Source: an uncultured archaeon (GTDB taxonomy: Archaea > Asgardarchaeota > Lokiarchaeia > Sigyniarchaeales > SOKP01). From it: a stretch of DNA of 11,993 nucleotides. A model generated the notes under the pieces. The model was not told the origin of the DNA, did not search any database, and saw nothing but the letters and a program-made list of their open reading frames with translations. Within the stretch, counting starts at the first letter, position 1, and each line of letters begins with the position of its first letter. The position numbers and the translations under genes were made by a program. Below are positions 3 to 11,961 of this stretch, piece after piece. The stretch is from the NCBI GenBank assembly GCA_964525635.1, contig CAZGJX010000099.1, positions 3,100 through 15,092 of the forward strand. The letters are read 5' to 3'.

Positions 3-930
3 TCGGATAATGTTGATATTGATAGTATCTGGTATAATTGGAATGGTACGAATATGACTTATACCTCGGCACAATATATTACATTTAATGAAGGTTTGAA
101 CACTATATACACATGGGCTAATGATTCTGCAGGAAATATAGGAACATCTTCAGTTACCTTTACAATTGATATCAATACTCCAATAGTACAAATTAAGAGT
201 CCCATGAACACCACATATAATATTGCAACGCAGCTTCTAAATATTTCAGTATCTGATAACAATGAAATTGATTCCATCTGGTACAATTGGGATGGTTCGA
301 ATATAACTTACACTTCGGCACAATATATTACATTTAATGAAGGTTTGAACACTATATATACATGGGCTAATGATTCAGTGGGAAATATAGGAATGTCTTC
401 AGTTACCTTTACAATAGATACAATTACTCCAATAGTACAAATTGAATGTCCCATGAATACCACTTATAATATAGCTACACAATTATTAAACATTACAGTG
501 TCGGATAATGTTGATATTGATAGTATCTGGTATAATTGGAATGGTACGAATATAACTTATACTTCGGCACAATACATAACATTTAATGAAGGTTTGAACA
601 CTATATATACATGGGCTAATGATTCTGCGGGGAATATAGGAATGTCTTCAGTTACCTTTACAATTGATACAATTATTCCAATAGTACAAATTGAGAGTCC
701 TATTAATATAACTTATCCTTATTATGAAACCACGCAGCTTCTAAATATTTCAGTGTCTGATAATAATGAAATTGATTCCATTTGGTACAATTGGAATGGT
801 ACGAATATAACTTATACTTCGGCACAATATATAACATTTAATGAAGGTTTGAACACTATATATACATGGGCAAATGATTCTGCGGGGAATATAGGAATGT
901 CTTCAGTTACCTTTACAATCGATATAATAA
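3..930 (+). repeat. Coding tandem repeat, ~249-bp (83-aa) Ig-like units, ~4 copies, first partial
   Basis: Equivalent Ser codons at 3, 252, 501 and 756 (periods 249, 249, 255) with near-identical DNA between units. Confidence 0.9.
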
Positions 931-2870
931 ATCCCAATTACACATTTATTTCTATATGGGATACTACCATAACTAGTTCAGGTTCTAGCCTCATTAATCA
1001 AATTAGATTACCATTGGAATCAAATGGTAATTATAATTTCACAATTAATTGGGGAGATGGAAATTATAACACAATTACAAGTTGGAACCAACCAGAAGTA
1101 ATTCATACATATACTTCAGAAAATATTTACACTATTAGAATAGATGGTGTATTGATTGGGTGGAGATTTAATAATGGGGGAGACAGATTAAAGTTGCTTG
1201 AAATTCAACAATGGGGTAGCTTTAAATTAGGAAATTCAGGAAGTTATTTTTGGGGATGTTCGAATTTAAATCTTACTGCTTCTGATACTTTGGATCTAAC
1301 CGGAACTACTTCACTTTATGAAGCTTTTAGAGTTTGCAGTAATCTTGGTAGTAATGGAAATATGAGTAGTTGGGACGTTTCCAGCGTTACTGATATGTCC
1401 TATATGTTCTATAGTGCTTCTGCTTTTAACCAAGATATAGATAATTGGGATACCTCAAGCGTTACTGATATGTCCTATATGTTCTATGGTGCTTCTGCTT
1501 TTAACCAAGATATAGGTAATTGGGATACTTCAAGTGTTACAACTATGTATGCTATGTTCTCTTCTGCCACTTCATTTAACCAAGATATTGGCAGTTGGGA
1601 TGTTTCCAGCGTTATAAACATGGGTAGTATGTTCAATTATGCTCCTTCCTTCAATCAAGATATAGGTAATTGGAGTGTTTCCAGCGTTACAACAATGGTT
1701 AGTATGTTACGTTACGCTTCTTCCTTCAATCAAAATATTGGCAGTTGGGACGTTTCCAGCGTTACTGATATGTCCTATATGTTCGAACAGGCTTCTTCCT
1801 TCAATCAAGATATAGGTAATTGGAGTGTTTCCAGCGTTACAAACATGGATAGTATGTTATGTTACGCTTCTTCCTTCAATCAAGATATAGGCAACTGGTC
1901 TACCTCAAGTGTTATAAGTATGAGATATATGCTCTCTTATGCCACTTTATTCAACCAAAATATAGGTAGTTGGGACGTTTCCAGTGTCACAAACATGGAA
2001 AGTATGTTCCATTCGGCTACTTCATTCAACCAAGATATAGGCAGTTGGAATGTTTCCAACGTTATAAATATGGGATATATGTTTTATGCTGCTACTTCGT
2101 TTAACCAAGATATTGGCAGTTGGGATGTTTCCAGCGTTATATACATGGGTGGTATGTTCTATCAAGCAACTTCTTTCAATCAAAGCATTGGCAATTGGGA
2201 CGTTTCCAGCGTTACAGGCATGGCTAGTATGTTTAATTTTGCTACTTCCTTCAACCAAGATATTGGCAGTTGGGACGTTTCCAGCGCTACAAACATGGAT
2301 AGTATGTTCTATTATGCCACTTCATTCAATCAAGATATAGGTAATTGGAGTGTTTCCAGCGTTACAACCATGGGTAGTATGTTTTCTTATGCCACTTTAT
2401 TCAACCAAGATATAGGCAATTGGGACGTTTCCAGCGTTACTAATATGTATGCTATGTTCTCTAGGGCTACTTCATTTAACCAAGATATCGGCAATTGGGA
2501 TGTTTCCAGCGTTACAGACATGGCTTATATGTTCCAACAGGCTTATTCTTTCAACCAAGATATAGGTAATTGGAGTGTTTCTAGCGTTACAACCATGGGT
2601 TGCATGTTCCGTGATGCTTCTTCCTTCGACCAAGATATTGGCAGTTGGAATGTTTCCAGCGTTACAACCATGATAGTTATGTTTGATGGGATTTCATTAT
2701 CAACACCAAATTATGAGAGTCTGTTAATAGGATGGTCGAATCTTCCTCTGCAAACTGGTGTGATCTTTCATGGAGGAAATTCAAGATATAGCTCAGCTGA
2801 AGCTGAAGCTGCAAGAGATTTTATCATAAATAATTTTAGTTGGACAATTTATGATGGTGGAAAAGTATAA
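3..2870 (+). CDS. Large repetitive surface protein (Ig-like repeats + PKD-like domain + BspA/DUF285 leucine-rich-type repeats), 5'-partial
   Basis: The frame is open from base 3 (SDNVDIDSIWYNWNGTN...), so the ATG at 54 is internal and the true start lies upstream of the window. Contains 83-aa repeats (..WANDSAGNIG..), a PKD-like segment (FTINWGDG..HTY), 25-aa WDVSSVTxMxxMFxxAxSFNQDIGx repeats and the typical W-x-I-x-DGG C-cap. Many N-x-S/T sequons; no C-terminal TM anchor. Confidence 0.9.
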   Translation, partial: SDNVDIDSIWYNWNGTNMTYTSAQYITFNEGLNTIYTWANDSAGNIGTSSVTFTIDINTPIVQIKSPMNTTYNIATQLLNISVSDNNEIDSIWYNWDGSNITYTSAQYITFNEGLNTIYTWANDSVGNIGMSSVTFTIDTITPIVQIECPMNTTYNIATQLLNITVSDNVDIDSIWYNWNGTNITYTSAQYITFNEGLNTIYTWANDSAGNIGMSSVTFTIDTIIPIVQIESPINITYPYYETTQLLNISVSDNNEIDSIWYNWNGTNITYTSAQYITFNEGLNTIYTWANDSAGNIGMSSVTFTIDIINPNYTFISIWDTTITSSGSSLINQIRLPLESNGNYNFTINWGDGNYNTITSWNQPEVIHTYTSENIYTIRIDGVLIGWRFNNGGDRLKLLEIQQWGSFKLGNSGSYFWGCSNLNLTASDTLDLTGTTSLYEAFRVCSNLGSNGNMSSWDVSSVTDMSYMFYSASAFNQDIDNWDTSSVTDMSYMFYGASAFNQDIGNWDTSSVTTMYAMFSSATSFNQDIGSWDVSSVINMGSMFNYAPSFNQDIGNWSVSSVTTMVSMLRYASSFNQNIGSWDVSSVTDMSYMFEQASSFNQDIGNWSVSSVTNMDSMLCYASSFNQDIGNWSTSSVISMRYMLSYATLFNQNIGSWDVSSVTNMESMFHSATSFNQDIGSWNVSNVINMGYMFYAATSFNQDIGSWDVSSVIYMGGMFYQATSFNQSIGNWDVSSVTGMASMFNFATSFNQDIGSWDVSSATNMDSMFYYATSFNQDIGNWSVSSVTTMGSMFSYATLFNQDIGNWDVSSVTNMYAMFSRATSFNQDIGNWDVSSVTDMAYMFQQAYSFNQDIGNWSVSSVTTMGCMFRDASSFDQDIGSWNVSSVTTMIVMFDGISLSTPNYESLLIGWSNLPLQTGVIFHGGNSRYSSAEAEAARDFIINNFSWTIYDGGKV
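1371..2690 (+). repeat. Coding tandem repeat, 75-bp (25-aa) DUF285/BspA-type units, 17 complete + 1 partial
   Basis: A Trp codon recurs every 75 bp from 1371 to 2646 with no indels. Confidence 0.95.
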
Positions 2871-2885
2871 ATTTTACTTATAAAA

Positions 2886-2910
2886 TTTTTTTTTTATAAA
2901 TTACTTTTTT
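2886..2910 (+). terminator. Putative archaeal oligo-T terminator
   Basis: T10 run at 2886-2895 plus a further T-run just after the stop at 2870. The background is AT-rich, so specificity is limited. Confidence 0.5.
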
Positions 2911-3551
2911 AAAAACTCTCTCTCTGTTTATAGTTTATATTAAATGTACAATACTACTTTCATTTGGTTTATAGATTTATTAATTATTAAATCTTACCAT
3001 TTTTTTTCAATTTTTTTTCTTTACCTTTTATTATATAGGAAATTCCATAATCTAATAGAATTTGCATTATAAATCAGGATAATTCTTGGAAATACATTTT
3101 CCCTTAACATTTTCTAGTTTTAAAAGTATTAGAAACCTTAGAAAAACACTTTTTATTTAGGTATTATGAGTTAATGGTAATTAGATTCAAACGCATTTTT
3201 TTAGAAATTAGCATCTATATTTCTATTAAATTAAAAAAAAACTTTAAGGTCTAATAACATTTAAAATATAAGAATATAAAATGATGGAAACGGAACCAGT
3301 ATTTTTTTTAATATGATTTTTTGTATTATAATTATTTAATCTTTAAATTAAATTAATTAAATTTCAAGAGGATCGTGAAATCATAGGATTCCGAGTCTAA
3401 ATTATTATTTTCCATACAAATCCTATAATGTTGTAGTATAAATTATTAATTAGATTTTATAGTAAATTTTTTGTTTAAGTAAAGAGAACTAAGATTCTTT
3501 TTCTAACATGATAAATTGCTTGATTTCAAATAAAACTATAAGTAAATTATA

Positions 3552-5436: not shown

Positions 5437-6360
5437 ATGACATATGTAGAGATTATTGTTCCTATATTTCTAGCATTTCGAGAGGGTATTGAAGCAATAC
5501 TAGTTATTATAATTATGTTGCTATATTTAAGAAAAACCAATCAAAAACTTTACTATAGGCATGTATATATTGGAAGTATTTTAGGAATCCTATTTAGTAT
5601 TGTATTTGCCTTCATTTTTAACTCTATTTTAGGAGGATTTACAGGTGTTATGGAAGAATTATTTGAGGGATTTACCTTCATTATATCTGGATTCTTCATC
5701 ATTACTTTAATATTATGGATGAGCAAGGAAGGACCTAAATTGAGGGATAATATCGAACAGAAAATTAAAAAATCTATTCAAAAAGAAAAATCCTTCTCAA
5801 TTATGATATTAACATTTATAATAATTGTTAGAGAAGGAGTGGAATTAGTTCTTATGTTAACAGGAGCTACTTCTGTAGGGACACTCCAATCAATTGATGT
5901 AATATTAGGATCATTATTAGGTATTGGTATAGCATTAGGTACTGGATTGATCCTATTTTATGGCATAAAAACAATAAATTTATCATTATTTTTCCAAATA
6001 ACTAATATTATTCTTGTGTTATTTGCGACAGGATTGATTGTATATGGATTCCATGAATTAATTGAATCAGATTTTATAAATCCTTTAATCGAGGAGGTCT
6101 GGAATTTAAAGGCAATTCTTCCTGAGAATTTTCCTGATGGAAATCCATTAACTCCAGAATGGCTCGAAGTGATTGGATCATTACTAAAAGCATTATTTGG
6201 ATATAATGCCAATCCATCACTGTTAGAGATACTTATTTATCCAATTTTAATTATTATAATAAGTTCAATTTCATTGAAACTATGGAAACGATCAAGTGAA
6301 AATCTCAATGAAAAGAGTATTTATCAATCATCAGGAATGGTAAGATTAGAAACTAAATAA
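5437..6360 (+). CDS. ftr1: FTR1/EfeU-family iron permease
   Basis: Two RExxE motifs (REGIE, REGVE), about 7 hydrophobic helices, G-x-HEL and ..LKALFGY..PS motifs. Confidence 0.9.
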   Translation: MTYVEIIVPIFLAFREGIEAILVIIIMLLYLRKTNQKLYYRHVYIGSILGILFSIVFAFIFNSILGGFTGVMEELFEGFTFIISGFFIITLILWMSKEGPKLRDNIEQKIKKSIQKEKSFSIMILTFIIIVREGVELVLMLTGATSVGTLQSIDVILGSLLGIGIALGTGLILFYGIKTINLSLFFQITNIILVLFATGLIVYGFHELIESDFINPLIEEVWNLKAILPENFPDGNPLTPEWLEVIGSLLKALFGYNANPSLLEILIYPILIIIISSISLKLWKRSSENLNEKSIYQSSGMVRLETK

Positions 6361-6423: not shown

Positions 6424-6543
6424 AATAGTAAAATTAATGATTTTATTTTTTTTAATCAATATCTTCTGTATTATTATATTCTTTTGAAAGAATAAAGAAT
6501 ATTCAATATTTATGAAGTATAATCTTAATTAAATGATAAAAAG

Positions 6544-6563
6544 TATATATTAAATGGTATATG
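6544..6563. promoter_or_regulatory. Degenerate copy of the putative copper operator (TATATAT-taaatg-GTATATG)
   Basis: Same 7-6-7 geometry as the sites at 7508 and 9801, 12/14 arm positions matching; upstream of the regulator gene. Confidence 0.4.
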
Positions 6564-6676
6564 TTTAAATATTAATATTTAAAAATATATATTTTAAATA
6601 GAAGATCTTTTATATTTACTTTAGAATGTTATTATTATAAATCTTTTATTATCAAAAAATAAAATGTTGAGTTTTG

Positions 6677-7117
6677 ATGAATGAAAATGAAGATATTAAG
6701 ATTAGAAATTTAACTAAACTATATACATTAGTTTTATTGAAAGCAAATAAAGTGATTTCAGGATATTCAATTTTAAAACGTTTAGACAAAGATCTAGGAA
6801 AAACAAGTAGTCCTACTTATATTTATGATTTTTTAAATGATCTCGAAGCTAAAAGTTATATTGAGAATGTAAAATCATTAAAATCTAACAAATCAAAAGG
6901 TTACTCACTTACCACTTTAGGAAATGATTTTGTAGAAAAAATACTGACGAGATTTGATAATTTAATTGAAGTTGGAATTCAATCAAAACTAAAAATTTGT
7001 GCTAGCTGTGGAGTAAAATTATATATGGATTTTCATACAGAAGAAATAAAAGGAGAGAAAATGAATTTTTGTTGTAAACATTGTGCTAAAGCCTATAAAA
7101 ATATTCAAAAGCCATAA
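6677..7117 (+). CDS. PadR-like winged-helix transcriptional regulator with C-terminal TRASH/YHS-type Cys domain
   Basis: N-terminal LLK..SGYSILKRL....SPTYIYDFLNDLE..SYI....KGYSLT..G is a PadR-type wHTH pattern. C-terminal CASC-x20-CCKHC. ATG at 6677 preferred over TTG at 6674. Confidence 0.8.
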   Translation: MNENEDIKIRNLTKLYTLVLLKANKVISGYSILKRLDKDLGKTSSPTYIYDFLNDLEAKSYIENVKSLKSNKSKGYSLTTLGNDFVEKILTRFDNLIEVGIQSKLKICASCGVKLYMDFHTEEIKGEKMNFCCKHCAKAYKNIQKP

Positions 7118-7174
7118 TTCTTAGAATTATAAGAGATAGAAAGAAATAAATTTTTATAGGGTTGAATTTTTGTA

Positions 7175-7468
7175 TCATTCTTTTTCATTTAATTTATCTT
7201 GATAATAGACTTCTCTATAATTCCCTCTCACTAAGAGATAAACTAATAAACCAATAATATTAAATATCAATACAATAATTAACCAAATTTCAGAATTATG
7301 AATTCGTAATCTAAGTGCATCTTTATGGACATAATATGCCATTACGATACTAATACCAATATAGATAAAAAATCCAAATAACATAAAAATCCACCAAAAT
7401 GGTCCAAAGATATTAAACATCCAATCCATCATATGATCATGATCATAATCAAGAATTATAATTATCAT
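7175..7468 (-). CDS. Small membrane protein, PLDc_N-like hairpin with N-terminal His/Met motif
   Basis: HDHMMDWM followed by hydrophobic helices and a DA..R....W..IVLIFNIIGLLVYLLVR pattern typical of PLDc_N-like proteins. Confidence 0.7.
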   Translation of the reverse strand: MIIIILDYDHDHMMDWMFNIFGPFWWIFMLFGFFIYIGISIVMAYYVHKDALRLRIHNSEIWLIIVLIFNIIGLLVYLLVRGNYREVYYQDKLNEKE

Positions 7469-7506
7469 CCCTTTTCTGTAATTTCATAAAAATGAACATT
7501 TTTTTG

Positions 7507-7541
7507 ATATATACATTAATGTATATATTTAAAGGTATGTA
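7507..7541. promoter_or_regulatory. Perfect 22-bp palindrome ATATATACATTAATGTATATAT (7507-7528) plus an overlapping degenerate copy (7522-7541), putative copper operator
   Basis: Lies in the divergent promoter between the small membrane gene and copB and overlaps a minus-strand TTTAAATA box (7533-7526). Confidence 0.7.
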
Positions 7542-7689
7542 TAATAAAATAAATATTATTTTTTTAAAAAGAATATTATCTATAGTAAGATCATTCTTAA
7601 TACTAATAATCTATTATACAATGATTTTAGTTCATGTATATCTTAAGATTCTATAATTCAAATTATAAATTTTAGAAATAAATGAAATT

Positions 7690-9750
7690 ATGGAAAATAT
7701 ACATTATAAAAAACATGAAATGGGAAATAAAGAAGATATAGAACATGATTTAGTAGATCATAAAGATCACTCTAAAAAATCGATGCATAATGATCACAAT
7801 GATCATAAAAATCATCATAAAATGATGTTAAATGATTTTAAAAGAAGATTTTTTGTTTCATTGGTTATAACATTTCCAATATTGGTTTTATCACCTTTAA
7901 TTCAATCTTTTTTTAAATATAATTTAGAATTTCCCGGTTCAATCTACATAATTTTTATTCTCTCCTCATTTGTATATATTTATGGAGGATTTCCTTTTAT
8001 TAAAGGGATGATCAAGGAATTTAAAGATAAAATACCTGGAATGATGACTTTAATTGCAATTGCTATATCTGTTGCTTATCTCTATAGTTCTATTGTAGTA
8101 TTTGGATTAGAGGGAGAAGTTTTTTTTTGGGAATTGGCAACATTGATTGATATTATGTTAGTAGGACATTGGATTGAAATGCGTTCAGTATTAGGGGCAT
8201 CAAGAGCACTTGAAGAATTAGTAAAAATTATGCCATCAGAAGCCCATTTAGTAAATAATAATGAAATACAAGATGTAAAAGTAGAAGAATTAACGGTTGG
8301 AGATAATGTTTTAGTAAAACCAGGTGAAAAAATCCCTATAGATGGTATTATCATTCAGGGTGATACAAATGTTAATCAAGCTCTGATCACAGGAGAATCT
8401 AAACCTGTTTCTAAAAAGATTCATGATGAAATTATAGGAGGTGCTATTAATGGAGAAGGGTCGATAGTTATAGAAGTAAAGAAAACAGGTAAAGATACAT
8501 ACTTAAACCAAGTTGTTGAATTAGTTAAAAATGCTCAACAAGCAAAATCGAAAACTCAAGATTTAGCAAATAAAGCAGCATTAATTTTAACCATTGTTGC
8601 TATCTCTGTTGGATTTTTAACATTTACTCTTTGGATTTTATCTAACCAAAATCTAACATTTGCTATAGAGCGAACTGCAACTGTTATGGTAATTACATGT
8701 CCACATGCTTTGGGTTTAGCAGTTCCTTTAGTAGTTGCTCGTTCAACAACATACGCAGCCACATCAGGATTATTAATAAGGGATAGAACTGCATTTGAAA
8801 CTGCCAGAAATATAGAGGCAATTGTATTTGATAAAACAGGAACACTTACTCAAGGTAATTTCGGAGTGATTGATATCATATCTTTTAATGGTATTGATGA
8901 AAATGATATTTTAAGCATTACAGCTTCTCTTGAAAATAAATCAGAACATCCTATCGCACTTGGTATAGTCAATAGTGCTAAAGCAAGAAAAGTTCAATTT
9001 GAATCTGTAGAAGAATTTAAAGCAATCCCAGGAAAAGGAATTAAAGGAAAAATTGGAGAAACCGATTATAAAGTTGTAAGTCCTGGATATTTAAGAGAGA
9101 TGGATAGATCTTTTAATAATAAAGTTATTGAAGAGAAAAAACAACAAGGTAAAACTATTGTTTTTTTATTAAAGAATGATAATCCTATTGGAGCACTAGC
9201 ATTAGCAGATATTATAAGGGAGGAATCAAAAGAAGCTATTAAGAGATTAAAATCATTAGGAATTAAATGTATTATGCTAACAGGAGATAATCAATTTGTT
9301 GCAAAATGGGTTGCAGATGAATTATTACTTGATGATTTTATTGCAGAAGTCTTACCCCACGAAAAAGCAGATAAGATAAAAAAAATTCAAGAAAAATATA
9401 AAACTGCAATGGTTGGCGATGGAATCAATGACGCACCTGCTTTGGCTCAAGCAGATGTTGGAATTGCAATCGGAGCTGGAACTGATGTTGCTATTGAAAC
9501 AGCTGATATTGTACTTGTTAGAAATGATCCACGTGATGTAGCTGATATATTACACCTTTCGAAAAATACCTATTCAAAAATGTTTCAAAATTTAATATGG
9601 GCTACAGGGTATAACGCATTTGCAATACCACTTGCTGCTGGAGTTCTCTTTAGTTTAGGAATCTTACTTTCCCCTGCTATTGGTGCAATACTAATGAGCT
9701 TAAGTACTGTTATTGTAGCGATTAACGCAAGATTATTAAAGAAATCTTAA
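7690..9750 (+). CDS. copB: Copper-translocating P1B-3 type ATPase
   Basis: His-rich N-terminus (10 His in the first 43 aa), TGES, CPH, DKTGT, SEHP, TGDN, GDGINDAP, GYN and MSLST motifs; complete. Confidence 0.95.
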   Translation: MENIHYKKHEMGNKEDIEHDLVDHKDHSKKSMHNDHNDHKNHHKMMLNDFKRRFFVSLVITFPILVLSPLIQSFFKYNLEFPGSIYIIFILSSFVYIYGGFPFIKGMIKEFKDKIPGMMTLIAIAISVAYLYSSIVVFGLEGEVFFWELATLIDIMLVGHWIEMRSVLGASRALEELVKIMPSEAHLVNNNEIQDVKVEELTVGDNVLVKPGEKIPIDGIIIQGDTNVNQALITGESKPVSKKIHDEIIGGAINGEGSIVIEVKKTGKDTYLNQVVELVKNAQQAKSKTQDLANKAALILTIVAISVGFLTFTLWILSNQNLTFAIERTATVMVITCPHALGLAVPLVVARSTTYAATSGLLIRDRTAFETARNIEAIVFDKTGTLTQGNFGVIDIISFNGIDENDILSITASLENKSEHPIALGIVNSAKARKVQFESVEEFKAIPGKGIKGKIGETDYKVVSPGYLREMDRSFNNKVIEEKKQQGKTIVFLLKNDNPIGALALADIIREESKEAIKRLKSLGIKCIMLTGDNQFVAKWVADELLLDDFIAEVLPHEKADKIKKIQEKYKTAMVGDGINDAPALAQADVGIAIGAGTDVAIETADIVLVRNDPRDVADILHLSKNTYSKMFQNLIWATGYNAFAIPLAAGVLFSLGILLSPAIGAILMSLSTVIVAINARLLKKS

Positions 9751-9799
9751 AACTTTTTTATTATTAAATAAATATATATTTTATAATAGTAATGCTTAG

Positions 9800-9821
9800 A
9801 TATATACTTAAATGTATATAC
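9800..9821. promoter_or_regulatory. Putative copper operator TATATAC-ttaaat-GTATATA (9801-9820)
   Basis: Perfect arms, identical to the 7508-7527 site; downstream of a TTTATAAT box (~9780) and upstream of the TRASH-copA operon. Confidence 0.7.
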
Positions 9822-9873
9822 CCTAAATATAAAATGCAATAAAAGTAAGTATAATATACAAAGAGAGAACGAA

Positions 9874-10086
9874 ATGAACGAGAAAAATTGTCCGATTTGT
9901 GGAAAAAGTATAAAATCAGATGCAGATATACATTTATTTTGCTCATTATGTGGAATGGGTATCCCAAATGAACTATCTCATCTGGTATATAAAAATATAA
10001 AGGGAAAATTATTGCATTTTTGTTGTAATCATTGTTTATCTATTTATAAAGAAGAGATAGATAAAAATATAACAATTAAAGATTGA
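9874..10086 (+). CDS. Small Cys-rich TRASH-domain protein, putative copper chaperone
   Basis: CPIC-x13-CSLCGM...HFCCNHC; lies immediately upstream of copA. Confidence 0.75.
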   Translation: MNEKNCPICGKSIKSDADIHLFCSLCGMGIPNELSHLVYKNIKGKLLHFCCNHCLSIYKEEIDKNITIKD

Positions 10087-10110: not shown

Positions 10111-11961
10111 ATGAATGAGGTAATAGAAGAAAAAAGGAAATCTACTTTAAAAATTCAAGGAATGCATTGTGCTTCATGTGCTCAAAAAATCTCAAAGGAA
10201 CTAAATAAATTTGAAGGAATTAATAATGTTAATGTAAATATTGCGACTAATAAAGCATATTTTACATATAATCCACTTAGAGTTGATAAAAAGGATATCG
10301 TCGATGCTATAGAAAGGATTGGGTATGGAGCAACCCCAAATACTGATAAAATAATCATTAAAATTGGAGGTATGACTTGTGCATCTTGCGCACAAACCGT
10401 AGAAAAGGCTCTTAAGAATAGTTCAGGAATTATCAGTGCGAATGTCAATATTACTACAGAAAAAGCAACAATTGTATATGATACAGAATTTATGAATTAT
10501 GAGAGTATTGCTGATATAATTAATAAAACAGGATATAAAGCACTCAACAAAGTTGAATCATCATCTGGTAGGGTTTCATATGATAAAGAAATTGAAGAAG
10601 AAGAGCAAATATATAACTTGGCTAAGAAACGGTTAAAGATTGTATGGGCATTTAATATCCCTATAATTATTTGGATGTTATTTGAAATGATTGGAGGGAT
10701 AATTTGGCCTAATGAACTTATTTATAATTTAGGAATAATTGTATTAGCCATTTTTCCTCTACTCTGGGCAGGATATGAGACATATTTTACTGCATTCAAA
10801 GCAGTAAGGCACGGAAGTGTAAATATGGATGTTCTTATTGCTTTAGGAACGCTCTCAGCCTTTATAACAGGACCTTTATCATTTATTATTCCTGTTTTTA
10901 ATTATGCGGGTGTTGGAGCAATGATAATGGCATTTCATCTCACAGGAAGATATATTGAGACAAAAGCAAAAGGAAGGGCTTCTCAAGCAATCCGAAAACT
11001 TTTGGAATTAGGTGCTAAAACTGCGACTATTATTATTGATGGGAAAGAAAAAGAAATACCTATTGAAGATCTACAAATAAATGATATCATGCTAATCCGT
11101 CCAGGAGCTAAAATTCCAACAGATGGAATTATAATTGAAGGAAAAAGCTATATAGATGAATCAATGGCTTCAGGTGAATCATTACCAGTAAAAAAGAATA
11201 TTGGTGATGAAGTAATTGGTGCAACGATTAACCAAAAAGGTTTATTGAAAGTAAAGGCTACAAAGATTGGTGAAGATACCTTTTTAGCTCAAGTGATTCA
11301 TTTAGTTGAGGAATGTCAAGGTTCTAAAGTTCCAATACAAAAATTTGCTGATAAAATTACTAGTTATTTTGTTCCAACAGTATTGGTGATATCGCTCATT
11401 GGATTGATATTATGGATGTTTATTCCCCAAACTATGATTGACTTAATTTCACCTATTGCACCATTTATTCCATGGGTGAATTTAAATACAGGGCTCATTA
11501 CATTAGCGATTTCAGCATTTATCTCGACATTAGTAATCGCATGTCCTTGCGCCCTTGGGTTAGCAACCCCAACAGCATTAATGGTTGGAAGCGGTTTAGG
11601 AGCTGAAAATGGTATACTAATTAGACGGGGTGAAGCAATTCAAACACTTCGAAACATAGACGTAATAATATTTGATAAAACTGGAACTATTACTAAAGGA
11701 TCTCCTGAAATAACTAATATTCATGCTATTAACGGATTTACTGAAGAGGAAATTGTTCAATATGCTGGAAGTGTTGAAAAAGGTTCAGAACATCCACTTG
11801 CAGATGCAATTGTTAGAAAATCAAAAGAATTAAATCTTGAACTTTATGATATAACTAATTTTAAAACAATTACTGGAAAAGGAGTAAAAGCTAATATAGT
11901 TAATAAATATGGAACTATATTGGTTGGAAGCAAAAAACTCTTAGTGTCCTATAATTATTAA
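10111..11961 (+). pseudogene. copA: CopA P1B-1 Cu(I) ATPase, truncated within the nucleotide-binding domain
   Basis: Two HMA domains (GMHCASC, GMTCASC), SGES, CPC, DKTGT and SEHPL are present. It stops after VGSKKLL and lacks TGDN, GDGxND and the last two TM helices. SD-like AAGGTG upstream. Confidence 0.8.

Follow-up and report, generated by a model that had tools for sequence, protein, structure and literature searches.

Which protein reads the 20-bp inverted repeat that recurs at the copper-export promoters of an uncultured Asgard archaeon, and to what effect, is the question raised by a window of 11,993 nucleotides (the whole stretch of DNA analysed here, from contig CAZGJX010000099.1, positions 3100-15092). 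The window carries a copper module and belongs to a 4.45-Mb assembly with a G+C content of 26.8%. The repeat, TATATAC-N6-GTATATA (a 7-6-7 dyad), lies close to a gene (6677-7117, plus strand) for a protein of 146 amino acids, in which Pfam, a profile search and an AlphaFold model point to a PadR-like DNA-binding domain joined to a TRASH metal-binding domain. In the broader form TATATA(C/T)-N6-(G/A)TATATA, the dyad is very likely the operator of this adjacent PadR-TRASH protein (hereafter the regulator), because its exact form is confined to cop promoters in this genome, it is found upstream of 47 of 53 orthologous regulator genes, it is absent near the P1B-type ATPase genes of genomes without the regulator, and more distant clades possess a variant of it. 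This assignment, which the preliminary description of the locus had already proposed, is joined here to a mechanism of copper-relieved repression, itself rather probable, and the explanation as a whole is given a probability of about 0.65.

The genome has just two exact copies of the dyad. The first (site 1, TATATAC-ATTAAT-GTATATA, 7508-7527) forms the centre of a perfect palindrome of 22 bp (7507-7528). It lies 40 bp upstream of the ATG of a small membrane protein gene, which is on the minus strand, and the copB ATG follows on its other side after 163 bp. The second (site 2, TATATAC-TTAAAT-GTATATA, 9801-9820) lies 51 nt past the copB stop codon and 53 bp upstream of the gene for a TRASH-domain chaperone candidate which precedes copA. 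Both coordinates and the palindrome are as the preliminary description gave them. No exact copy arose in dinucleotide shuffles of the window. When a matrix was trained on relatives only, with this genome excluded, site 2 ranked first and site 1 second genome-wide, the two scoring 21.6 and 18.7 with the next-best sequence at 17.3. Copies with one mismatch number four and those with two mismatches 114. The four one-mismatch sites (contigs C2, C29, C156, and C218) were considered as regulon members and rejected, having no recognisable copper genes nearby and lying in two cases inside open reading frames (ORFs). The promoters of the ftr1 and hemerythrin genes, from which the dyad had been reported to be missing, indeed contain no copy at up to three mismatches.

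The dyad recurs at the same position in relatives. Of 154 genomes in the order, 56 encode an orthologue of the regulator, and the loci around these orthologues were retrieved; being related, the genomes are not independent of one another. For 47 of the 53 orthologues with at least 50% identity, the dyad lies 31-113 bp upstream of the regulator start (24 exact copies and 23 with one mismatch, the change nearly always being C7 to T or G14 to A), which gives the consensus stated above. The commonest layout is a single dyad between the regulator gene and a divergent copA or small membrane protein gene, while a further dyad precedes the small membrane protein gene in many loci and copB in some. One 68%-identical orthologue (locus L032, G011:C48:2476-2895) has a best dyad match with four mismatches and no cop gene in the 11.5 kb fetched, and may be a relocated or retargeted copy.

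The same sites speak to whether the palindrome might act as RNA, either as a leader hairpin or as a terminator after copB. The sites can fold into short hairpins (-5 to -7 kcal/mol), and the distance of site 2 from the copB stop codon would suit a terminator. However, the stems are weak and made of A and U only, no T-run follows, and the 47 orthologous sites keep the arm sequence while the loop varies, their common changes (C7 to T, G14 to A) being one-sided with no compensation. On account of these weak stems and one-sided changes the RNA reading was rejected, its likelihood being close to negligible.

The 154 genomes hold 40 exact dyads, of which 32 are located at cop loci; the 30 that come from regulator-positive genomes are all among these. 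The eight outside cop loci were treated as background: all belong to regulator-free genomes, three fall within ORFs, and the TTTAAA flank described below accompanies none of them. The comparison of genomes with and without the regulator, suggested in the preliminary description, favours the operator assignment, since dyads track regulator-positive cop loci, and in five near-complete regulator-free genomes no copy at up to two mismatches occurs in 78 kb around nine P1B-ATPase genes.

Across the phylum the regulator family is present in 115 of 400 genomes. Beyond the order, where regulator identity falls to 31-43% and G+C content rises to 40-46%, a different dyad appears. Among 23 distant loci, three of them within the order, 15 have ATATATC-N6-GATATAT or ATATATC-N7-(G/A)ATATAT in the regulator region, often in several exact copies of which some overlap in a 14-bp register. 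Inside the order, a complete genome of 4.36 Mb (G032) has a 42%-identical orthologue, divergent from copA and accompanied by an ATATATC-N7-AATATAT site. In one distant family, five genomes contain 19 exact copies of ATATATC-N6-GATATAT in total, every one of them on the contig of the regulator and no further than about 7 kb from it, with 0 copies of a control pattern in the same genomes. The predicted start of the recognition helix changes together with the operator, reading SPTY(I/V)YDFL with TAC-N6, S(P/A)GTLYPFL with ATC-N6 and SxSL(I/V)YPFL with ATC-N7, the pattern that co-evolution of regulator and site would produce, although each type is also a clade. Such natural operator variants provide built-in specificity controls. 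A bolder possibility, which is put forward only tentatively, is that PadR-TRASH proteins form a system that senses metal throughout the Asgard phylum, with half-sites doubling as TATA boxes, the sensor competing directly with the TATA-binding protein (TBP), dimers lining up in the 14-bp register, and a readable recognition code pairing T-Y (T47-Y48 in the regulator of the window), G-T, and S-L at the helix start with TAC-N6, ATC-N6, and ATC-N7, respectively. If such a code is true, specificity would be predictable and could be swapped between clades.

It might also be supposed that another transcription factor, encoded elsewhere, binds the dyad and that the PadR-TRASH gene travels with the cop cluster as a passenger. 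Co-localisation fits an association with the cluster as well as one with the regulator, and two cop-associated exact dyads come from assemblies in which no regulator was found (G093 and G126). The contigs concerned are short or end at the site, however, and where near-complete genomes have no regulator, the dyad is missing from the surroundings of their P1B-ATPase genes. The dyad is also most constant directly upstream of the regulator, and the operator variant shifts with the regulator clade. A passenger role is left with a slender chance.

The regulator itself is predicted from its domains to be a copper sensor with a PadR-type domain fused to a TRASH domain. Residues 12-78 form a PadR-like winged helix and residues 80-102 a long helix, while the TRASH domain makes up the C-terminal part. 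The Pfam PadR family (PF03551) scores 26.8 bits against a cut-off of 27 (E-value 5.4e-6), which is borderline for a single sequence, and is precomputed on all 120 homologues listed. A profile of 42 family members retrieves B. subtilis PadR (E-value 3.4e-7), AphA (1e-3), and Ta0938 (0.02), with many PadR structures ahead of MarR; by its N-terminal winged helix-turn-helix the protein thus belongs with PadR. The AlphaFold model (pLDDT, the predicted local distance difference test score, of 86.5) has a winged helix, a long helix right after the wing and a small beta/alpha TRASH module, and a Foldseek search with this model gives PadR and MarR folds much the same rank. The TRASH pattern C-x2-C-x19-22-C-x3-C is present as C108-x2-C111-x20-C132-x3-C136; in 42 homologues C108, C111, and C132 are invariant and C136 nearly so, and C133 and H135 are likewise invariant. 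The Ta0938 family of Pfam also matches the regulator (27.4 bits, cut-off 27). The TRASH protein of 70 amino acids encoded ahead of copA is 35% identical to the regulator's TRASH domain and has the FCC-x-HC signature in common with it, which suggests, by analogy with CopZ and CopY, that it might hand over metal to the regulator.

In the favoured explanation a dimer of the regulator would bind the dyad, each of the two half-sites, with centres 13 bp apart, taking up one winged helix. Three promoters would be under its control: that of the divergent pair of small membrane protein gene and copB, that of the TRASH-chaperone and copA unit, and, through a weakened copy of the dyad, its own. As the half-sites would overlap or abut the TATA box and the transcription factor B recognition element (BRE), a bound dimer would keep TBP and transcription factor B (TFB) off both divergent promoters. 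Loading of Cu(I) onto the C-terminal TRASH cysteines, perhaps from the 70-amino-acid protein, would then lower the affinity of the dimer for DNA, and transcription of the pumps would follow. Start codons on the cop side are separated from the edge of the dyad by 39-48 bp in the case of the small membrane protein gene and by 50-60 bp in that of copA or the TRASH gene. Since an archaeal TATA box precedes the start site by about 26-28 bp (PMC8553660), these distances imply that the core promoter overlaps or touches the dyad; the BRE, being upstream of the TATA box, would be placed inside it. Toward the regulator, the dyad's purine-rich spacer followed by GTATATATT looks like a BRE plus TATA box. 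It had been suggested that the dyad sits at or downstream of TATA boxes, and that this position implied repression; the conserved TATA-like elements are, however, in or just beyond the half-sites and not upstream of them, so that repression is a reasonable proposal but one which the position of the dyad does not imply.

The dyad could also be no more than two TATA boxes set back to back in a compact core promoter that works in both directions, conserved for its basal role and read by no specific regulator. Its half-sites are TATA-like, the dyads of relatives lie between divergent genes at distances that suit TATA boxes, and toward the regulator the spacer resembles a BRE. Such a generic element should recur at many divergent gene pairs, whereas the exact form is restricted to cop loci. 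Site 2 of the window and the site of locus L031 do not lie between divergent genes and nevertheless keep the full palindrome; TATA boxes require neither the invariant C7 and G14 nor a fixed 6-bp spacing; and the clades richer in G+C have a different but equally exclusive dyad at the same regulator. A pair of TATA boxes alone is accordingly viewed as a quite improbable account.

A wider promoter architecture surrounds the dyad. The conserved order in relatives is a TA-rich left flank, the dyad, TTTAAA, and then, 12-29 bp further toward the regulator, a block TATTATA..ATATATAC; the purine-rich spacer of the dyad is orientation-specific (T-GAAA-A before GTATATA). A 65-bp profile was built from 24 regulator-proximal dyads aligned on the dyad, with this genome left out. 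Its three best matches in the genome all fall in the window. The third of these (6534-6598, plus strand) lies upstream of the regulator and comprises a dyad, TTTAAA, and a block TATT.A..ATATATA. The dyad in it (TATATAt-N6-GTATATg, 6544-6563, two mismatches) is 113 bp upstream of the regulator ATG and taken alone is marginal (P of about 0.03 in composition-matched shuffles of the spacer upstream of the regulator). Because of its profile rank and because its flanks fit the architecture found upstream of the regulators of relatives, it is predicted to be homologous to the operator and promoter that serve the regulator gene itself, which lends support to the autoregulation that the preliminary description had read from this copy.

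The two better profile matches coincide with the exact sites. The second-best (7498-7562, plus strand) faces copB, so that a predicted promoter of the regulator type now faces copB at site 1. The best (9766-9830, minus strand), which is also the best match in the genome on flanks only, faces the 3′ end of copB and has no gene behind it. This minus-strand block at site 2 is probably a relic of an ancestral divergent promoter of regulator and copA; the stretch at 9766-9800 is either what a rearrangement left behind or a promoter that gives rise to antisense transcription into copB. The fourth-best match (G000:C72:7270-7334) is outside the window, about 160 bp from a match to a PadR-like paralogue of 219 amino acids (C72:6866-7108, minus strand), and could be due to chance or be a related operator.

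Words resembling half-sites are also enriched around the dyad, at +14 (6%) and +28 (19%) from the main half-sites as against 0-2% at most other offsets. In relatives the ATATATAC-like block occupies dyad positions +22 to +29, at a distance from the right half-site of exactly 28 bp, or twice 14. The window has it at 7549-7556 and 9849-9859; it is either a third half-site or an initiator or proximal promoter element. A further copy of the dyad with two mismatches (7522-7541) overlaps site 1 at an offset of 14 bp. The preliminary description counted it with 6544-6563 as a degenerate copy, and of that pair the latter holds as the homologue of the regulator promoter site, while 7522-7541 appears to be a weak neighbour and not an independent copy. 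It shares a half-site with site 1, sits in the enriched 14-bp register and is not kept as a dyad in close relatives, and for these reasons is rated as a possible weak auxiliary site.

This architecture gives some weight to a different mode of action, in which the regulator stays bound and either activates or both represses and activates, with copper remodelling the protein so that TBP and TFB are recruited. The CopR motif of P. furiosus lies between divergent TBP/TFB sites, directly upstream of the BRE, and the CopR protein acts as both repressor and activator (PMC7830388). The second TATA-like block found 12-29 bp past the dyad on the regulator side would, if a true TATA box, put the dyad upstream of the BRE, a position typical of activators, and the half-site-like words at +14 and +28 hint at assemblies of several dimers. 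Against activation, the start codon on the cop side is only 39-60 bp from the dyad edge, so close that the core promoter has to overlap the dyad or adjoin it, and the spacer T-GAAA-A before GTATATA resembles a BRE with the half-site itself as TATA box. PadR-family proteins characterised so far are, moreover, mostly repressors released by a ligand, AphA being a known exception. Activation, alone or combined with repression, is judged unlikely on balance.

Several observations weigh against repression at a regulator-specific operator, the preferred explanation. At up to one mismatch, genome-wide counts of the dyad in relatives are not above those of a reversed-pattern control, and exact copies across the 154 genomes number 40 as against 29 control matches. 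The signal lies in the placement of exact and near-exact copies at cop loci and not in their number or in a general excess; on whether the motif simply occurs at background rate, a concern raised in the preliminary description, the exact form is confined to cop promoters in this genome, and the form with up to one mismatch does not exceed the control. The regulator and cop genes are always neighbours, so binding by this regulator and mere membership of the cop locus are not fully separable, and the covariation of recognition helix and operator follows clades and could perhaps be phylogenetic inertia. The 163 bp between site 1 and the copB ATG are far for direct occlusion of a proximal promoter. 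Finally, TRASH regulators that have been characterised act otherwise, P. furiosus CopR being a dual repressor and activator whose motif is directly upstream of the BRE (PMC7830388).

The closest known system is the archaeal cop cluster with CopR/CopT. In P. furiosus CopR (PF0739; PMC7830388, which also cites studies of CopR/CopT from T. onnurineus, Saccharolobus, and Halobacterium), as in the regulator described here, an N-terminal DNA-binding domain is combined with a C-terminal TRASH domain. The gene is likewise placed beside copA, and usually divergent from it, a palindromic site sits between divergent core promoters, and the cluster includes a TRASH chaperone gene. However, CopR has an octamer-forming Lrp/AsnC fold, whereas the present protein is PadR-like, with 146 residues, a winged helix-turn-helix and one long helix, and neither Pfam nor NCBIfam gives a Lrp/AsnC match for it. 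The CopR site of P. furiosus is a weak semi-palindrome with extended wrapping footprints, unlike the sharp 7-6-7 dyad, and its motif TTNNCAWWWTGNNAA has 0 matches in the window. The system is a variant of the archaeal winged helix-turn-helix TRASH cop regulon, and it would seem that in archaea TRASH-based copper sensing has been joined to PadR as a second scaffold for DNA binding, in place of Lrp/AsnC.

With the PadR family (B. subtilis PadR 5x11, LmrR, Vibrio AphA) the regulator shares the winged helix, as matched in profile and fold, and probably the C-terminal helix, as well as a putative operator in the form of an inverted repeat; it differs in its C-terminally fused TRASH metal domain and in the position of its gene in a copper-export cluster. 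PadR proteins characterised to date respond to phenolic acids or drugs, or take part in quorum sensing. The AphA box, ATATGCA-N6-TGCATAT (PMC3440409), was correctly cited earlier as a precedent for the 7-6-7 geometry. Its spacing is the same as that of the dyad while its half-site sequence is unrelated. The logic proposed here is also that of CopY/TcrY. These winged-helix repressors of Enterococcus and relatives have a C-terminal cysteine cluster, receive Cu(I) from a chaperone with related chemistry at its metal site and are released from a palindromic box in the cop promoter. They are bacterial proteins with a BlaI/MecI-type fold and the metal motif CxCx4CxC, and in both fold family and metal motif the regulator is unlike them. 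The CopY cop box TACAnnTGTA has 0 matches in the window, and the earlier reading of the dyad as TACA-N4-TGTA, noted then as differing from that box in spacing, is coincidental, since position 8 is T in 30 of the 47 orthologous sites and site 2 reads TACT.

In the literature searched, no regulator combining PadR and TRASH and no Asgard copper regulator was described, and neither mapped transcription starts nor factor-operator pairs were found for Asgard archaea. The locus offers a complete candidate pair of this kind, namely a 146-amino-acid regulator and a 20-bp site unique to cop promoters in its genome, together with a defined set of putative targets (two copper pumps, a TRASH chaperone, and a His/Met-rich membrane microprotein). 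A generic promoter model from this genome, based on the positions of TATA words upstream of 540 long ORFs with Shine-Dalgarno-like sequences, gave no positional peak and was unusable for placing core promoters.

Close homologues of the proteins encoded in the window are labelled Promethearchaeota/Lokiarchaeota (Asgard archaea). The window holds a TRASH regulator, a TRASH chaperone gene, and a copper P1B-ATPase, as archaeal cop clusters do, with CopB in addition. The CopB-type P1B ATPase (7690-9750, plus strand) has a CPH motif and a His-rich N-terminus. It is followed by the 70-amino-acid TRASH protein (9874-10086, plus strand), a chaperone candidate resembling CopM/CopT, and by a CopA-type P1B ATPase (10111-11961, plus strand) with two HMA domains and a CPC motif, which has no stop codon before 11961, close to the end of the window and of the contig.

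The small membrane protein (97 amino acids, 7175-7468, minus strand) has a His/Met-rich N-terminus (DHDHMMDW). Its family, with the N-terminal signature H-x-MMDW, is a recurrent target of the dyad in relatives (L098-L102, L068, L073, and L086), frequently as two tandem paralogues, and adds an uncharacterised small membrane protein family tied to copper handling. At locus L057 the conserved His-rich N-terminal extension of this gene is in frame, yet no ATG, GTG, or TTG was found when the sequence was read by eye; an AGGTG box precedes an ATT/ATA codon and a non-canonical start is possible. Locus L076 has a 40-amino-acid His/Glu-rich ORF (2829-2951, minus strand) with repeated HEHEHKKEM units, starting 50 bp from an exact dyad and divergent from copB; it may encode a metal-binding microprotein that this operator also controls.

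On its 5′ side the copper module is preceded by ftr1, a hemerythrin gene, and genes for a DUF6448 and a DUF285 protein. The FTR1 iron permease gene (5437-6360, plus strand) adjoins the cop module, and in another genus (locus L084, G093:C155) FTR1 is likewise beside it, with an exact dyad between copB and FTR1; this linkage of iron uptake and copper export may perhaps be non-accidental. The DUF285 gene (54-2870, plus strand) encodes a secreted repeat protein of 938 amino acids with six DUF285 stretches and Ig-like N-terminal domains, and is unrelated to the copper module.

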